Origin: Candidatus Fokinia solitaria
Lineage (GTDB): Bacteria; Pseudomonadota; Alphaproteobacteria; Rickettsiales; Midichloriaceae
NCBI RefSeq assembly: GCF_003072485.1
Contig: NZ_CP025989.1
Coordinates: forward strand, 360,001 to 392,000
DNA: 32,000 nucleotides
Direction: 5' to 3'
The translations under genes were made by a program, and so were the position numbers. Numbering within the stretch: position 1 is the stretch's first letter; each line of letters starts with the position of its first letter. The notes beneath the pieces were generated by a model, which did no database searches, was not told the DNA's origin, and saw only the letters and a program-made list of their open reading frames with translations. Positions 21,697 to 30,161 of this stretch are shown here, piece after piece.

Positions 21697-22158
21697 ATGA
21701 TAGCTAAAAACGATACTCAAAATGGTACTCAAAATGATCTTGAGACGCTGATACATAATGAAATAAAAAAACGATGCGAATATATCTCCAAGAGAAGTAT
21801 CGATATGCTGCTTTATCTTCTAGAAAAAAAAGAAGATGCAGATGCTTTTGAGATAGAAGATAAGTTCAAGCATGAGTTAGAAGATAATGATCTTCAGCAT
21901 AATCTTTTTGCATTATGGAAAATAATGTACGGACATTCTCAGATAATTCCTGAAAATATTCGGTATTCTCCATTTTATAATAAGATAATTCACGGAATTA
22001 GCATGGAGTTATTTGTTATGGAGATGCAATTATTATTAACGACAGCAGCGCCGCTTGAAGTGTCTCGAGAGTGTGATGCAGATGCTCAATCTCAACAGCA
22101 GCAATGCAATGGTATAGATGAGAACGATGATGGTGGCTCAGATGCGGATTTTTACTAA
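21697..22158 (+). CDS. Divergent member of the small winged-helix-like / Q-rich / acidic-tail family (paralog of 25269, 26268 and 29661)
   Basis: By-eye alignment: ETLIHNEIKKRCEYISKRSIDMLLYLLEKK vs ETVHGIVHRCCKTILPISSEVLELLLHKS; ISMELFVMEMQLLL vs VPIFMEEAQMMLQ. The C-terminus QSQQQQCNGIDENDDGGSDADFY has the same Q-run, Cys and acidic tail. Confidence 0.55.
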   Translation: MIAKNDTQNGTQNDLETLIHNEIKKRCEYISKRSIDMLLYLLEKKEDADAFEIEDKFKHELEDNDLQHNLFALWKIMYGHSQIIPENIRYSPFYNKIIHGISMELFVMEMQLLLTTAAPLEVSRECDADAQSQQQQCNGIDENDDGGSDADFY

Positions 22159-22225
22159 TATGTTTCTTTTGTTGTGTGTGATGTGCTACTATCTCGAGAT
22201 GTAGTTCATTCGAAATATGTAGAAA

Positions 22226-24037
22226 ATGTGCGGTATTGTAGGGATTTTTGATAAAAATATAAAAGCTCATTCAATTTCGGAAAGGCTTTGTACGGCTTTG
22301 CATTTTATAGAGTACAGAGGATATGATTCGTGTGGTGTTGCGATGTTTTCCTCTTTTGAAGATATTCAGCCACAGTTGATAAAGACAGTTGGAGAAGTTA
22401 AGAAATTAGAAATGAAATTAGCCTCCTCCTACTATAGTAGCAATGAGGTTTCGCGGTACAATATCGGTATTGCTCATACAAGATGGGCGACGCATGGTGT
22501 TGTTACTGAAAGTAATGCGCATCCAATCAATGTAAACGACATATACATGGTGCATAATGGCGTTTTAGAAAATTACCTCACTCTAAAATCCACACTTGCT
22601 TCCGATTATCAATTCAGTAGTGGTACAGATACCGAAGTCATCGCAGCATTACTCGATAAAGAGATGAAAGTAAGTGAAACTCCGGTAGCTGCTGCGATTG
22701 CGACTTTGAATTACTTAAAAGGCATAGGTAGTTATATTGCAGTTTCGCATCGCTATTCTGTTATGATCGTAGTGTGTATTGGTACTCCGATGATAATTGG
22801 CAAGACCGATGATGATGACTTTTACGTAGTATCTGATATTTTAGCATTTCCTCATACTGTGACTTCTACTTATCATATGAAAACGGATGAAGTTTTTTGC
22901 ATCAGCAATAGTGAGCGAATTTTATATTCAAAACAACGTAATGGCTTTATATCTATGGATTTACTTCCTTTTAAAGCGGAAAATATTACGCAATCCGAAC
23001 TTGGTACATATAGTACACATACAGAGAAAGAGATTTATGAGCAGGTAAAGATAGTACAGTCTATACATCTTGATATAAAGCAGAAGCTGCTAACTTTGAA
23101 CATGGATATTACACAGTATGATGAAATAGTAATGATCGGATGTGGTAGTTCATTCAATGCCTGTAATATCATAAAAGAGCTAATTTTAGAAAGAGGCATT
23201 AGTTGTATTGTTAGTGCTGAAATTGCATCAGAATTTTCAATAAGAAAACGTCATCGCAGTAACAATACGCTTTACATTCTTGTGTCTCAATCCGGTGAGA
23301 CCGCTGATACCATAAAATGCTTAGATATTATAGGAGAATGCGATACTTTAGGAATAGTGAATCGCCTGCATAGCAGATTGGCAAAAAGCACAAAATACTT
23401 GATACATGTAGATATAGGTGTGGAAGTAGGTGTTGCTTCTACGAAGAGTTTTACCTCTCATCTGATAATATTATCGATGCTGTTTGGTTTATATAATAAC
23501 GAAGAAATAAGTAAAGAATGTAGTACAATTGCTAAGAATATAGCTAGTACGCTTGAGTTATGGCCTAGCATCAGAGAAGTTTTGTTGCGATATGCTACCG
23601 TAAGTAAAATACTTATCATAGGAAAAGGAGTGTCATACTATGCAGGTGTTGAATGCGCATTAAAAATCAAAGAGCTTACATATATTCCAACGGAAGCAAT
23701 TCCATCAGGAGAGTTGAAGCACGGACACATCGCACTTGTTGATGAAAAAACCCTCGTGATTGCTTTCTTTGATGAATACAGAGACAAGATCAAAAACAAT
23801 GTACAAGAGGTCTTAGCAAGAGGAGGTAATGTAGTAGCTTTTGATACTAATCGGCGAATTGATGATAATAGTACTGAATTCATCACTTTTCATACTGCAA
23901 ATACCTCAAATCTACCCTTCTCTACTCCGCTGCTTAACGCAATTGTAGGGCAAATTCTAGCGGTAGCAATAGCACAAATGCTAGATCTTAATGTGGATAA
24001 ACCGCGAAATTTAGCTAAATCCGTTACTGTCGAATAA
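22226..24037 (+). CDS. glmS: Glutamine--fructose-6-phosphate aminotransferase
   Basis: 603 aa with MCGIVG (Cys2 nucleophile), two SIS-domain regions and the canonical C-terminus ..KPRNLAKSVTVE. Confidence 0.96.
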   Translation: MCGIVGIFDKNIKAHSISERLCTALHFIEYRGYDSCGVAMFSSFEDIQPQLIKTVGEVKKLEMKLASSYYSSNEVSRYNIGIAHTRWATHGVVTESNAHPINVNDIYMVHNGVLENYLTLKSTLASDYQFSSGTDTEVIAALLDKEMKVSETPVAAAIATLNYLKGIGSYIAVSHRYSVMIVVCIGTPMIIGKTDDDDFYVVSDILAFPHTVTSTYHMKTDEVFCISNSERILYSKQRNGFISMDLLPFKAENITQSELGTYSTHTEKEIYEQVKIVQSIHLDIKQKLLTLNMDITQYDEIVMIGCGSSFNACNIIKELILERGISCIVSAEIASEFSIRKRHRSNNTLYILVSQSGETADTIKCLDIIGECDTLGIVNRLHSRLAKSTKYLIHVDIGVEVGVASTKSFTSHLIILSMLFGLYNNEEISKECSTIAKNIASTLELWPSIREVLLRYATVSKILIIGKGVSYYAGVECALKIKELTYIPTEAIPSGELKHGHIALVDEKTLVIAFFDEYRDKIKNNVQEVLARGGNVVAFDTNRRIDDNSTEFITFHTANTSNLPFSTPLLNAIVGQILAVAIAQMLDLNVDKPRNLAKSVTVE

Positions 24038-25237
24038 AATTATGTGAGCCGAAATTTTGCCCTTTTATCTCTTGCAATTGTGCTTTCTGTGATATTTTTG
24101 GAGTTTCTTGTACTTTTTGTAGTATTTGTTGAGTTTGTTGTTGTGGTATTTTCTGAGTGTTTTCCTGTTTCTGTTGTTCCGCAGCTTTTTTACTGGCTTG
24201 CTCTATACTAAATTTCACAATTTCCTCAGAAAGCTTTTTCTCTGGTCTGTTTTCCTGCTTTCTTTCTTCTGCGCGTTTTAGAGCATTTTCTTTCAATTCA
24301 TCTATTTTCGCCATTAGATCTTTTGGCACATGTTCTAACTTTTTCCAGTGCGCTTTTTCTACATCCATCACTTTCTGAAAGAATTGTATCGATTCCTCAC
24401 AAGGTTGAGATGCTTTATAGAGGTTCTGTTGTTTCTTCCGTTGTCTAAGTTCACTATAAAGATTCGTAGATATTTCCCCTGTTATAGAATGAGCGAATTG
24501 AGATGGTGTACTATCTTTCTCTAGTACATCAGCATAAGCTGGATGAAGCACTCCTTCAGTCAAAATCATAAAGTCTCTCGTTAGCACTCCAAGCGCTGAA
24601 GCTTCATCAGCATGAGATATGGCTTGTTGTGCCAAAAACTCCTTAATCATTTTCTCTCGAGTTTTCTGTATCTCTCCGTTATTATGAAGGCAATCAAATT
24701 TATGCATAAATTCATGTACTATGGTGCCATAGTCATAGCCTTCTCTTTTATAGCTAAAGCCTTTTTTGTATAACAATGTAATTCTTCTTGCTATCAAATG
24801 CCCTTTCTATCGCCGTCAATGCTATAGTACCAAGATGGACAGCGTGAAATTCATCAGGTATTTTTTTCACATAGCTCTTGAAAAAATTTTCGATCTATAA
24901 ATTCTTTTGTCGCATCTCGAAAGTTCGTTTTATTTCTCTCTAATTCAGCTGCAATATCTTTTGTCTCTGTTATCTTCAGCAGCTCAGTATAAACGAGTTT
25001 TGAGTCTACGATGGCATTTAATTGCGTCTCAGAGTAAGGCGCATCGAGTATTGATTTATATGATTCACGATCTAGTGCGAATACAAATTGAGCTTTTATT
25101 CCACTAAAAGTTTCATGTTTGGCGTTTAGCTGTTGCGCATCTATATTGTTAAGAATTTCTTCTTTCCTTCTATTATATAAATTCATCTCTGTTTGTTCTG
25201 CTGTAATTTGATCTTGCTTATCGTTACTTGGCTTCAT
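24024..25237 (-). pseudogene. HExxH (zincin-like) large-family member P1, disrupted by at least two frameshifts
   Basis: ORF 24854..25237 is the N-terminus and ORF 24024..24797 holds the core with HEFMH (24702..24716). The two are linked only through a third frame (VKKIPDEFHAVHLGTIALTAIER). The frame changes fall near the T7 run at 24861..24867 and near CCCTTT at 24801..24806. The core aligns to P2/P3: GHLIARRITLLYKK~GGYYIAEDDTITLFQE, HEFMHKF..LHNNG and FMILT. Confidence 0.7.
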
Positions 25238-29430: not shown

Positions 29431-29533
29431 ATCGTTTTGAACATGATCTTTTCACTTTCGTATTTACGATGATTGAAAATATCAACATCCCTACCCGTTT
29501 TTGTATCGCACTTATGAGATTCGAAGATGAAAG

Positions 29534-29870
29534 GAAAAAGTCAAAAAGAAAGGAAGAAGGAGCGAAATGAGATTTTCACATACCTCTGTTACAAATGGAG
29601 AGAGTTGATACTCTCTCCAAGAGCATCACAATACTTTGTACGTGATACTACGATGAAAGCTTAGTCAATACTATCAGAATCGGAGTAATGCATCGCACTG
29701 TTATCATGAATTTCGCTATGTGGAGCCGCGCACTGACTTTGTTCAGGACTTGGTGCAGCAACTTGCTGTTGTTGTAGATGATTCGATGTAACATGATGTG
29801 GAGTTGCTTGATTCTGCAGCATCATCTGCGCTTCCTCCATGAAAATTGGCACCGCTATAGAACGTATTGC
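29534..29870. repeat. 337-bp dispersed repeat, copy 2 (the 3' 210 nt of gene C plus 127 bp of its downstream flank)
   Basis: See copy 1. Identity ends abruptly inside the coding sequence at the codons for ..AIRSIAV. Confidence 0.95.
29597..29618 (-). terminator. Second copy of the GGAGAGAG-ttgata-CTCTCTCC hairpin, downstream of gene C
   Basis: Identical to 26204..26225, offset 3393. Confidence 0.45.
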
Positions 29871-30161
29871 TGCATTCAGATCTCCATGAGTTCGTAGCGC
29901 GTCAGGAAGGTAATATGGCTTACCATCAAGAGTGCATAACAGTTCTTCAACAGCTTCGCCAAGTATACTGAAAGGCCCCCATAGCTTTGGGAATTTTTGT
30001 GCTAACTCCTTCCGAGATATATCTCCGCTTTTATGAAGAAGAAGTTCTAATACCTCAGATGAGATAGGTAGAATTGTTTTACAGCATCTGTGAACAATTC
30101 CATGTACCGTCTCATATTCAGATGCGTTCTTCTTGTATTTAGTATTATCTTTATCTATCAT
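29661..30161 (-). CDS. Small family member C
   Basis: I prefer ATG at 30161 (MIDKDNTKYKK) over the track's TTG 30173. It contains VLELLLHKSGDISRKELAQKFP, and its C-terminal 68 aa are identical to B. Confidence 0.75.
   Translation of the reverse strand: MIDKDNTKYKKNASEYETVHGIVHRCCKTILPISSEVLELLLHKSGDISRKELAQKFPKLWGPFSILGEAVEELLCTLDGKPYYLPDALRTHGDLNAAIRSIAVPIFMEEAQMMLQNQATPHHVTSNHLQQQQVAAPSPEQSQCAAPHSEIHDNSAMHYSDSDSID

Follow-up and report, generated by a model that had tools for sequence, protein, structure and literature searches.

Metaeffector, toxin-antidote and protease-inhibitor pairs, such as LubX-SidH and SidJ-SidE of Legionella, CifA-CifB of Wolbachia and AprA-AprI, are among the closest described counterparts of a small gene that lies beside the gene of a large enzyme-like effector. 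A second point of comparison is found within the Rickettsiales, where ankyrin effectors of Orientia and Wolbachia carry a C-terminal F-box or PRANC module and the TRP and Ank200 proteins of Ehrlichia are type 1 secretion substrates (PMC3417381, PMC10225607). Here, we describe a family of small acidic proteins encoded in a 32,000-nucleotide (nt) stretch of Candidatus Fokinia solitaria (contig NZ_CP025989.1, positions 360,001 to 392,000; hereafter, the window), a Paramecium endosymbiont of the Midichloriaceae (Rickettsiales) with an 837-kb genome (PMC5905368). The members share a C-terminal part that is far more alike than the rest of the protein, three of them lie head-to-head with genes for HExxH proteins, and a further copy resides in the macronuclear genome of Paramecium tetraurelia. 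We tentatively read them as proteins of modular build that use a shared C-terminal module and work inside the host cell; such a role, rather than DNA-binding regulation, is probably the function of the family.

As in the ankyrin and TRP effectors of the Rickettsiales, the Fokinia proteins are multi-copy, lineage-specific and acidic, lack a Sec signal, and would combine a variable, target-binding N-terminal part with a common C-terminal module or signal. Unlike those effectors, they are much smaller, possess a single helical core, and show no ankyrin, tandem-repeat or F-box homology. As in metaeffector and toxin-antidote pairs, the small gene adjoins that of a large enzyme-like effector, the two have diverged jointly and been duplicated as a unit, and the smaller gene outlives the larger. 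The differences from these pairs are that the Fokinia genes are arranged head-to-head and not in an operon, that no homology connects the two groups, that binding between the Fokinia proteins is putative, and that four copies in Candidatus Fokinia crypta (cryptica) have no partner.

The small-protein family and its constant C-terminal part

The window encodes four members, each annotated as a hypothetical protein (aa, amino acids):

Member D: 21697..22158, plus strand; Fsol_00360, 153 aa
Member A: 25269..25754, plus strand; Fsol_00364, 161 aa
Member B: 26268..26786, minus strand; Fsol_00365, 172 aa
Member C: 29661..30161, minus strand; Fsol_00367, 166 aa

An earlier note, made from the letters of this DNA, had grouped these four open reading frames (ORFs) as one family with a variable N-half and a constant C-half, and all four match annotated genes. 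They are real paralogues that align over their full length, but the count of four does not extend to the genome: a fifth copy, Fsol_00370, lies past the window end, where the array continues, and differs from B (Fsol_00365) at only 2 aa (170/172 identical). When the six-frame translation of the window was compared with a hidden Markov model of the family, A, B, C and D were matched and no other ORF was. The sequence PIFMEEAQMMLQNQAT occurs without variation across A, B and C, and D carries a degenerate version of it (ELFVMEMQLLL), both as the note had it. Homology of D to A (BLASTP E = 7e-14) and to C (BLASTP E = 1e-6) is clear; it represents a divergent subfamily without the PIFMEE motif, whose nearest relative is a metagenomic protein (P0009) that clusters with it at 99-100% neighbor-joining (NJ) bootstrap in the N-part and the C-part alike.

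The division into diverged N-parts and similar C-parts also proved real. Among A, B and C, identities are 29-39% in the N-part (A-B 39%, A-C 29%, B-C 37%) and 62-100% in the C-part (A-B 62%, A-C 62%, B-C 100%). The whole proteins comprise 153-172 aa, have a pI of 4.4-6.0, and contain neither a signal peptide nor a membrane segment. Each begins with a short peptide that is conserved family-wide (M-I/L-N-K-N-N-T), and the last helix of the core bears the conserved motif S-I-x-R-P-I-F-M-E-E-A-Q-M-M-L-Q. The tail of ~40 residues that follows is Q-rich and strongly acidic (net charge -6 to -9), with A-P-S-x-E-Q-x-Q-C/Y succeeded by a D/S-rich segment and a hydrophobic final residue. The Cys of this motif (Q-C; residue 143 of A) is present in every F. 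solitaria member and in P0009; F. crypta copies 2-4 and the Paramecium copy have Tyr instead, and F. crypta copy 1 has a deletion here. The copies with Tyr or a deletion in this column are thus the partner-less F. crypta and Paramecium copies.

In an AlphaFold model of A, built from a four-sequence alignment, seven helices and zero strands are predicted, with pLDDT above 90 at residues ~20-115. A compact all-helical core spans residues ~16-119, its first two-thirds varying between paralogues, and residues ~120-161 are disordered. The PIFMEE motif falls inside the final helix (92-119), so the split between N-half and C-half is not a domain boundary; the separate C-terminal domain implied by the note dissolves in this model, where PIFMEEAQMMLQNQ is the end of the last helix of one helical core. 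Foldseek searches against PDB and BFVD returned no similar fold for the small proteins, and Pfam, NCBIfam and PADLOC gave no significant family match. The small proteins are a genuine orphan family of small acidic helical proteins.

Profile searches of 1.8 billion protein representatives, and further of 5.8 billion proteins, confined the family to F. solitaria, F. crypta, one related metagenomic contig (P0009) and Paramecium (P0007), and scans of genome and metagenome contig collections yielded no additional relatives. F. crypta carries four intact paralogues in tandem (L003, 10001-12418), which retain RPIF(M/I)EEAQM(M/I)LQ and the conserved tail. Intact copies are kept in two strongly reduced genomes, with 5 in the 837 kb of F. 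solitaria and 4 in the 816 kb of F. crypta.

The near-identity between B and C is confined to a tract that runs past the end of both genes:

Constant tract, copy 1: 26141..26477, minus strand; final 70 codons of B, then 127 nt of 3' flank
Constant tract, copy 2: 29534..29870, minus strand; final 70 codons of C, then 127 nt of 3' flank

These tracts are identical at 336/337 nt, of which 127 nt are non-coding and lie beyond the stop codon; the 3' flank in copy 1 is predicted to form two stable hairpins (-34 kcal/mol, z = -4.2). Copies 3 and 4 of F. crypta likewise share 215 nt at 98% identity, extending beyond the stop codon, and an additional 53 nt at 94% identity. Synonymous divergence (dS) was compared for the two parts as follows:

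B and C, within genome: C-part 0, N-part 1.23
F. crypta copies 3 and 4, within genome: C-part 0.03, N-part 0.78
F. crypta copies 2 and 3, within genome: C-part 0.40, N-part 2.56
A and F. crypta copy 3, between genomes: C-part 1.63, N-part 1.22

Low dS is restricted to the C-part of within-genome pairs, and C-part dS between genomes is not reduced. Because the tract covers the non-coding 3' flank and the drop in dS is confined to the C-part, the near-identity of the C-halves is mostly the product of concerted evolution through gene conversion. The trees of the two parts conflict as well: the four F. crypta copies form a clade with 98% NJ bootstrap in the C-part but with 0% in the N-part, where A, B and C of F. 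solitaria form a clade at only 2% and A pairs across species with F. crypta copy 3 at 72%. Judged from these alignments, the conflict and the dS pattern show that the paralogues are older than the split between F. solitaria and F. crypta, that their 3' halves, together with the 3' flank, have been homogenised repeatedly within each genome, and that this concerted evolution is independent in the two species.

A second layer is found at the protein level. In diverged pairs, the ratio of nonsynonymous to synonymous divergence (omega, dN/dS) is 0.09-0.25 in the C-part and 0.2-0.8 in the N-part, which indicates stronger purifying selection on the former, and both F. crypta and the Paramecium copy keep the PIFMEE helix and tail motifs. 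A shared C-terminal function, as the note had proposed, is reasonable given this constraint and conservation, but the near-identity itself is largely gene conversion. The constancy of the C-half, as read from the sequences, is thus two-layered, with conservation across species and homogenisation of the DNA within each genome. Positive selection on the N-part was also considered and is unsupported, the omega values for that part being gross and dS saturated.

The closest parallel to this pattern is offered by msp2/p44 of Anaplasma, with which Fokinia shares a sharp mosaic of identical and diverged segments, a recA-positive reduced genome (recA lies within the window at 16141-17259) and tracts that reach into flanking DNA. 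Unlike msp2/p44, the Fokinia genes do not encode surface proteins and have no expression-site/donor layout, and conversion holds a module constant instead of producing variants.

HExxH partners and the Paramecium copy

Members A, B and C each have a divergent neighbor with an HExxH motif:

HExxH partner of A: 24024..25237, minus strand; pseudogene, motif HEFMH, with N-part, middle and C-part in three frames
HExxH partner of B: 26821..29430, plus strand; Fsol_00366, 869 aa, with a central HESLH domain
HExxH partner of C: 30197..32000, plus strand; motif HELMH, open to the window end, >600 aa

The annotation splits the partner of A into Fsol_00363 (127 aa) and Fsol_00362 (257 aa, HEFMH). Both are pieces of a single HExxH gene that two frameshifts have disrupted and whose middle segment is readable in a third frame; the spread of its reading over three frames identifies it as a pseudogene. 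Its C-part shows homology to each of the remaining two partners (E = 9e-18 and 1.5e-14), and the partner of C matches the 869-aa protein with 38% identity over 195 aa (E = 5.5e-35). A domain of ~200 aa is common to all three, in which HExxH is invariant and so is a G-E pair 77 residues downstream, a candidate zinc ligand. In the predicted model of this domain, HExxH stands at the start of a helix (73-105) after three strands, in a low-confidence part; the mean pLDDT is 62, and the best Foldseek match has E = 0.49, with none at E <= 0.001. No match to the HExxH partners was found in Pfam (M78/ImmA included), NCBIfam, PADLOC or PDB sequences. By the motif and its predicted place on a helix after strands, the neighboring genes are candidate zincin-like genes. 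In the protein searches, relatives of the HExxH family were found only in F. solitaria, and a scan of the genome contig collection for this family returned none.

The N-terminus of Fsol_00366 consists of FYQSL-type tandem repeats, and its C-terminus is Q-rich and basic. The repeats occupy ~1 kb (26878-27894) with periods of 33, 36, 39 and 72 nt and encode roughly thirty units of 11-13 aa of the form (R/K)xFYQS(L/I). The UniRef label of this protein, 'RGS domain-containing', was not reproduced by Pfam.

The genes of each pair are separated by a short spacer, over which promoter-like sites were located:

Spacer, A unit: 25238..25268, 31 nt, with a conserved TATACT -10-like box
Spacer, B unit: 26787-26820, within the range of 31-35 nt
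Spacer, C unit: 30162-30196, within the range of 31-35 nt
Promoter-like site, A: 25228-25255, TTGGCT-16-TATACT
Promoter-like site, B: 26844-26816, equivalent position, TATACT box
Promoter-like site, C: 30220-30192, equivalent position, TATACT box

With spacers of only 31-35 nt, the promoters of a pair cannot be independent, and the -35-like box of each small gene lies within the partner's coding sequence, with TATACT close to the partner's start codon. Across the region, promoter-like sites occur at chance frequency (39 vs 34.6 expected from shuffles), and a terminator scan was likewise at chance level overall.

In these units, repeats D7 and I3 cover the spacer together with the 5' ends of the two genes, and D7 relates the 5' end and spacer of the C unit to those of the B unit; this homology between units indicates that the paired genes were duplicated together. 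A divergent pair of the same kind is found in the Paramecium insertion, whose origin lies in an F. crypta-type lineage, and the pairing is therefore ancestral. It is not universal, however. The divergent neighbor of D (21004-21474, minus strand) is no HExxH relative; HExxH remnants were sought beside D, in the F. crypta array and in the metagenomic contig, and none was found; and for F. crypta there is no HExxH relative or remnant within 10 kb of the array and none in the protein searches. The linkage to HExxH genes drawn in the note consequently holds in part: D, P0009 and all four copies of F. crypta are unpaired, and the pairing recurs in the Paramecium insertion. Loss is one-sided: the HExxH gene has been lost or broken three times (A unit, F. 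crypta, Paramecium) with the small gene intact each time, and no HExxH gene was seen without a small gene. Identity is 32-38% among the partners and 29-39% among the N-parts of the small proteins, a similar degree of divergence. In sum, the pairing is ancestral but dispensable.

The Paramecium member (P0007) is GSPATT00006318001, a macronuclear gene of P. tetraurelia on the 651-kb scaffold CT868041, where two features were recognized (coordinates of the extracted locus, L001):

Intact family member: L001 10001-10474, plus strand; intronless 157-codon ORF with a TGA stop
HExxH pseudogene: L001 9096-9623, minus strand; frameshifted, divergent upstream of the intact member

The gene stands in a genuinely eukaryotic chromosomal setting: its neighbors include genes for a Vps4-type AAA ATPase, a V-ATPase c subunit, Alba, zf-CCCH and protein kinases, and the flanking DNA has 23-27% GC. 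It contains two in-frame TAA=Gln codons, one of them at the conserved Gln of MMLQ, and retains nearly all family-conserved residues. In NJ trees, its N-part groups with F. crypta copy 4 (73%), and its C-part branches as the sister of the F. crypta copies taken together (76%). The pseudogene was recognized by three collinear matches to the HExxH profile, at L001 9623-9381, 9453-9235 and 9248-9096, which cover profile positions 16-73, 86-128 and 149-170, respectively, and a decayed active site (TQFIHKFDY) lies in a fourth frame; neither its best score nor the sum of its top two was reached by any of 1000 shuffles (0/1000).

These sequences point to the movement of a bacterial head-to-head pair into the Paramecium genome as one piece, from symbiont to host, a direction given by the nesting of the copy in the bacterial clade and by its bacterial gene layout. 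The host of F. cryptica is P. biaurelia, of the same species complex as P. tetraurelia (PMC5118934). Bacterial genes have been described in ciliate genomes such as that of Euplotes (PMC13071891). The present case resembles these and the Wolbachia-arthropod insertions in that two adjacent bacterial genes lie in a host chromosome, one decayed and the other open and adapted to the host genetic code; it differs from them in its Midichloriaceae donor and in the retained gene, which is orphan and effector-like, not metabolic. No mention of GSPATT00006318001 or its transfer was found in the literature searched.

Weighing the possible functions

If the small proteins are modular proteins of the host cell, they would be exported and act in the Paramecium cytoplasm, where the variable helical surface may give each paralogue its own target, and this target might include the neighboring HExxH effector, as with metaeffectors. 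The last helix and the tail, which stay constant between copies, would form the common module and serve either as a signal for export at the C-terminus or as a peptide that docks to a single partner in the host or the secretion machine. The small proteins would function independently of the HExxH protein, since their genes remain whole even where the HExxH gene has been lost or disrupted. This account agrees with the retention of the copies, the disordered but conserved tail and the survival of the gene in a eukaryotic nucleus. It also agrees with the genomic setting, as the genes sit in islands of orphan effector-like genes, with HExxH, Q-rich and repeat proteins in the window and kinase-like and ankyrin proteins on the metagenomic contig.

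Several observations weigh against it. Export of the small proteins is putative, in which they differ from the Ehrlichia type 1 substrates, and the composition used to recognize type 1 signals carries no information in this family because tail and body are alike (LDAVTSIF content 44-54% in the tails and the same in the body, with LDAVTSIF/KHPMWC likewise alike). VirB/D4-type signals in the Rickettsiales are basic, unlike the net negative C-terminus of these proteins. The genome paper (PMC5905368) mentions secretion systems of Fokinia but gives no list of them. Gene conversion could follow passively from sequence similarity, and the long-kept head-to-head pairing argues for some functional link with the HExxH protein, a link that the present account makes secondary. 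The open Paramecium copy is only suggestive of selection: from the 3 frameshifts in 528 nt of the pseudogene, we estimate that ~2.7 would be predicted in 474 nt, and the probability of none is about 0.07 if the copy is neutral.

The functional link just mentioned is central to a possible, if doubtful, alternative, in which the small protein is an antidote, inhibitor or metaeffector that binds the neighboring HExxH zincin. The variable N-part would then confer cognate specificity, the acidic Cys tail would enter the active-site cleft or zinc site in a cysteine-switch-like manner, and copies without a toxin partner would persist as protection. The three head-to-head units of the window, with their short spacers and duplication as a unit, are expected on this explanation, as are the ancestral pairing seen in Paramecium and the one-sided decay, in which the small gene is never lost. 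The similar divergence of N-parts and partners agrees with it too, and so does the tail Cys, which all F. solitaria members carry and for which the partner-less copies of F. crypta and Paramecium have Tyr or a deletion; that Cys/Tyr pattern, however, amounts to one or two evolutionary events. The antidote explanation does not account for the four intact, purifying-selected F. crypta copies, which have no HExxH relative within 10 kb or in the protein searches, and D and P0009 are unpaired. An inhibitor should moreover co-vary with its target, yet the most conserved part of the small protein faces partners that are 30-38% identical.

An extension of this idea, which we regard as unlikely, is a symbiont toxin-antidote (addiction) module: Fokinia would deliver a protease-like effector together with its small neutraliser, and the Paramecium aurelia lineage would have captured the pair from an F. 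cryptica-like symbiont, let the protease gene decay and kept the antidote in its nucleus. If true, a host-encoded antidote would let the ciliate tolerate, control or lose its symbiont.

It is quite improbable that the small protein is a secretion chaperone or adaptor that stays in the bacterium and hands the adjacent HExxH effector over by way of the common tail, as VirE1, IcmS/IcmW and the type III class I chaperones do for their clients. Small size, acidity and a position adjoining a large putative effector fit such a role, and the basic, Q-rich C-termini of the partners are opposite in charge to the tails. A chaperone should decay without its client, though, and intact copies remain in F. 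crypta, the A unit and Paramecium; a client-dependent chaperone or a regulator of the neighbor fits poorly with a small gene that is kept wherever the partner is lost. No likeness in sequence or fold to any chaperone family was seen.

The earlier note had instead proposed a winged-helix regulator of the divergent HExxH gene, or a nucleomodulin with a Q-rich/acidic activation region, and we hold this to be scarcely credible. A divergent layout with a shared control region would suit a regulator, and the composition of the tail does resemble acidic/Q-rich activation regions. The family also resembles the IclR/MarR regulators and ImmR/ImmA pairs, in which a small protein is divergent from or adjacent to an HExxH protein, and contains an IclR-like helix-loop-helix stretch. 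Profiles from 4 sequences gave weak hits to the IclR winged helix-turn-helix (HTH; E = 0.034) and to RPA32 (E = 0.05), but with 10 sequences the former faded to E = 0.56 and the latter was lost. Pfam HTH_11 was matched by 1/10 members (C, E = 0.24) and no other HTH family was touched. The predicted structure contains neither a beta wing nor any strand, and Foldseek against PDB returned no winged-helix match (best E = 2.7). A basic DNA-contact surface is not apparent, the cores having a pI of 4.6-7.0 and a net charge of -9 to 0 in 10/10 members. Unlike IclR/MarR and ImmR/ImmA, then, the Fokinia proteins have no significant HTH, no wing and an acidic core, their partners match no peptidase family (M78/ImmA included), and copies survive even after loss of the gene that they would regulate. 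The winged-helix assignment is not supported, failing at the structure prediction that the note had itself named as decisive.

Least probable of all is cassette diversification, in which the conserved 5' start and 3' half would serve as recombination anchors that shuffle the variable middle: a 44-nt 5' end (repeat I3, 82%) and the 337-nt 3' tract do enclose a variable middle of ~300 nt, with recA present and N-part and C-part trees incongruent, but all copies are full length with their own promoter-like sites, neither an expression site nor truncated donors exist, the lack of a signal peptide or membrane segment leaves no surface exposure to vary, and the C-part is also constrained at the protein level between species.

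Neighboring features and significance

The contig that encodes P0009 (L002; ENA ERZ650344 contig NODE_2279), which has no HExxH partner for this member, holds two divergent pairs of a kinase-like protein and a small acidic protein (991-5936). The kinase-like proteins (HGDLHxxN...DFG; 619 and 369 aa) are identical over their first 25 residues, and the small acidic proteins (185 and 166 aa) end in HDYF or HDHF; the layout resembles that of the Fokinia pairs. The small acidic proteins of these pairs were rejected as family members (hhalign probability 0.1%). An ankyrin protein and a Q-rich protein are encoded nearby.

Elsewhere in the window, the following features were recorded:

695-1755, minus strand: two adjacent His-repeat-rich ORFs (HPHLAHFMYQHPHLAAHAAHFMHN), with a 102-nt tandem repeat (3.9 copies at 1331-1720) in the window's most G+C-skewed kilobase
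6840-7943, plus strand: release factor 2 gene (SPF motif), with a frame change from 6993 as expected for the programmed +1 frameshift of prfB
18799-19749, plus strand: orphan 316-aa protein with a signal-peptide-like N-terminus, EMTALM repeats (18-nt period) and an acidic S/T/D-rich end
20182-20490, minus strand: orphan 102-aa ORF, very acidic (pI 4.05)

C-termini that are acidic and rich in S/T/D are a recurrent feature of the orphan genes in this island.

Almost nothing is known of how Midichloriaceae symbionts interact with their protist hosts, and this locus provides testable candidates. Both the small-protein family and the putative zincin-like family are orphan and multi-copy in genomes that lack even a Krebs cycle. 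Two lines of evidence, independent concerted evolution in two genomes and a host nuclear copy with a pseudogenised partner, make this more than a plain paralogue family. It is a clean natural case of gene conversion holding one protein module constant, seen in two genomes, and the Paramecium copy with its decayed partner is direct evidence of a past transfer of Fokinia-like DNA into the aurelia complex. The same copy offers a genetically tractable entry to the role of the protein in the host.

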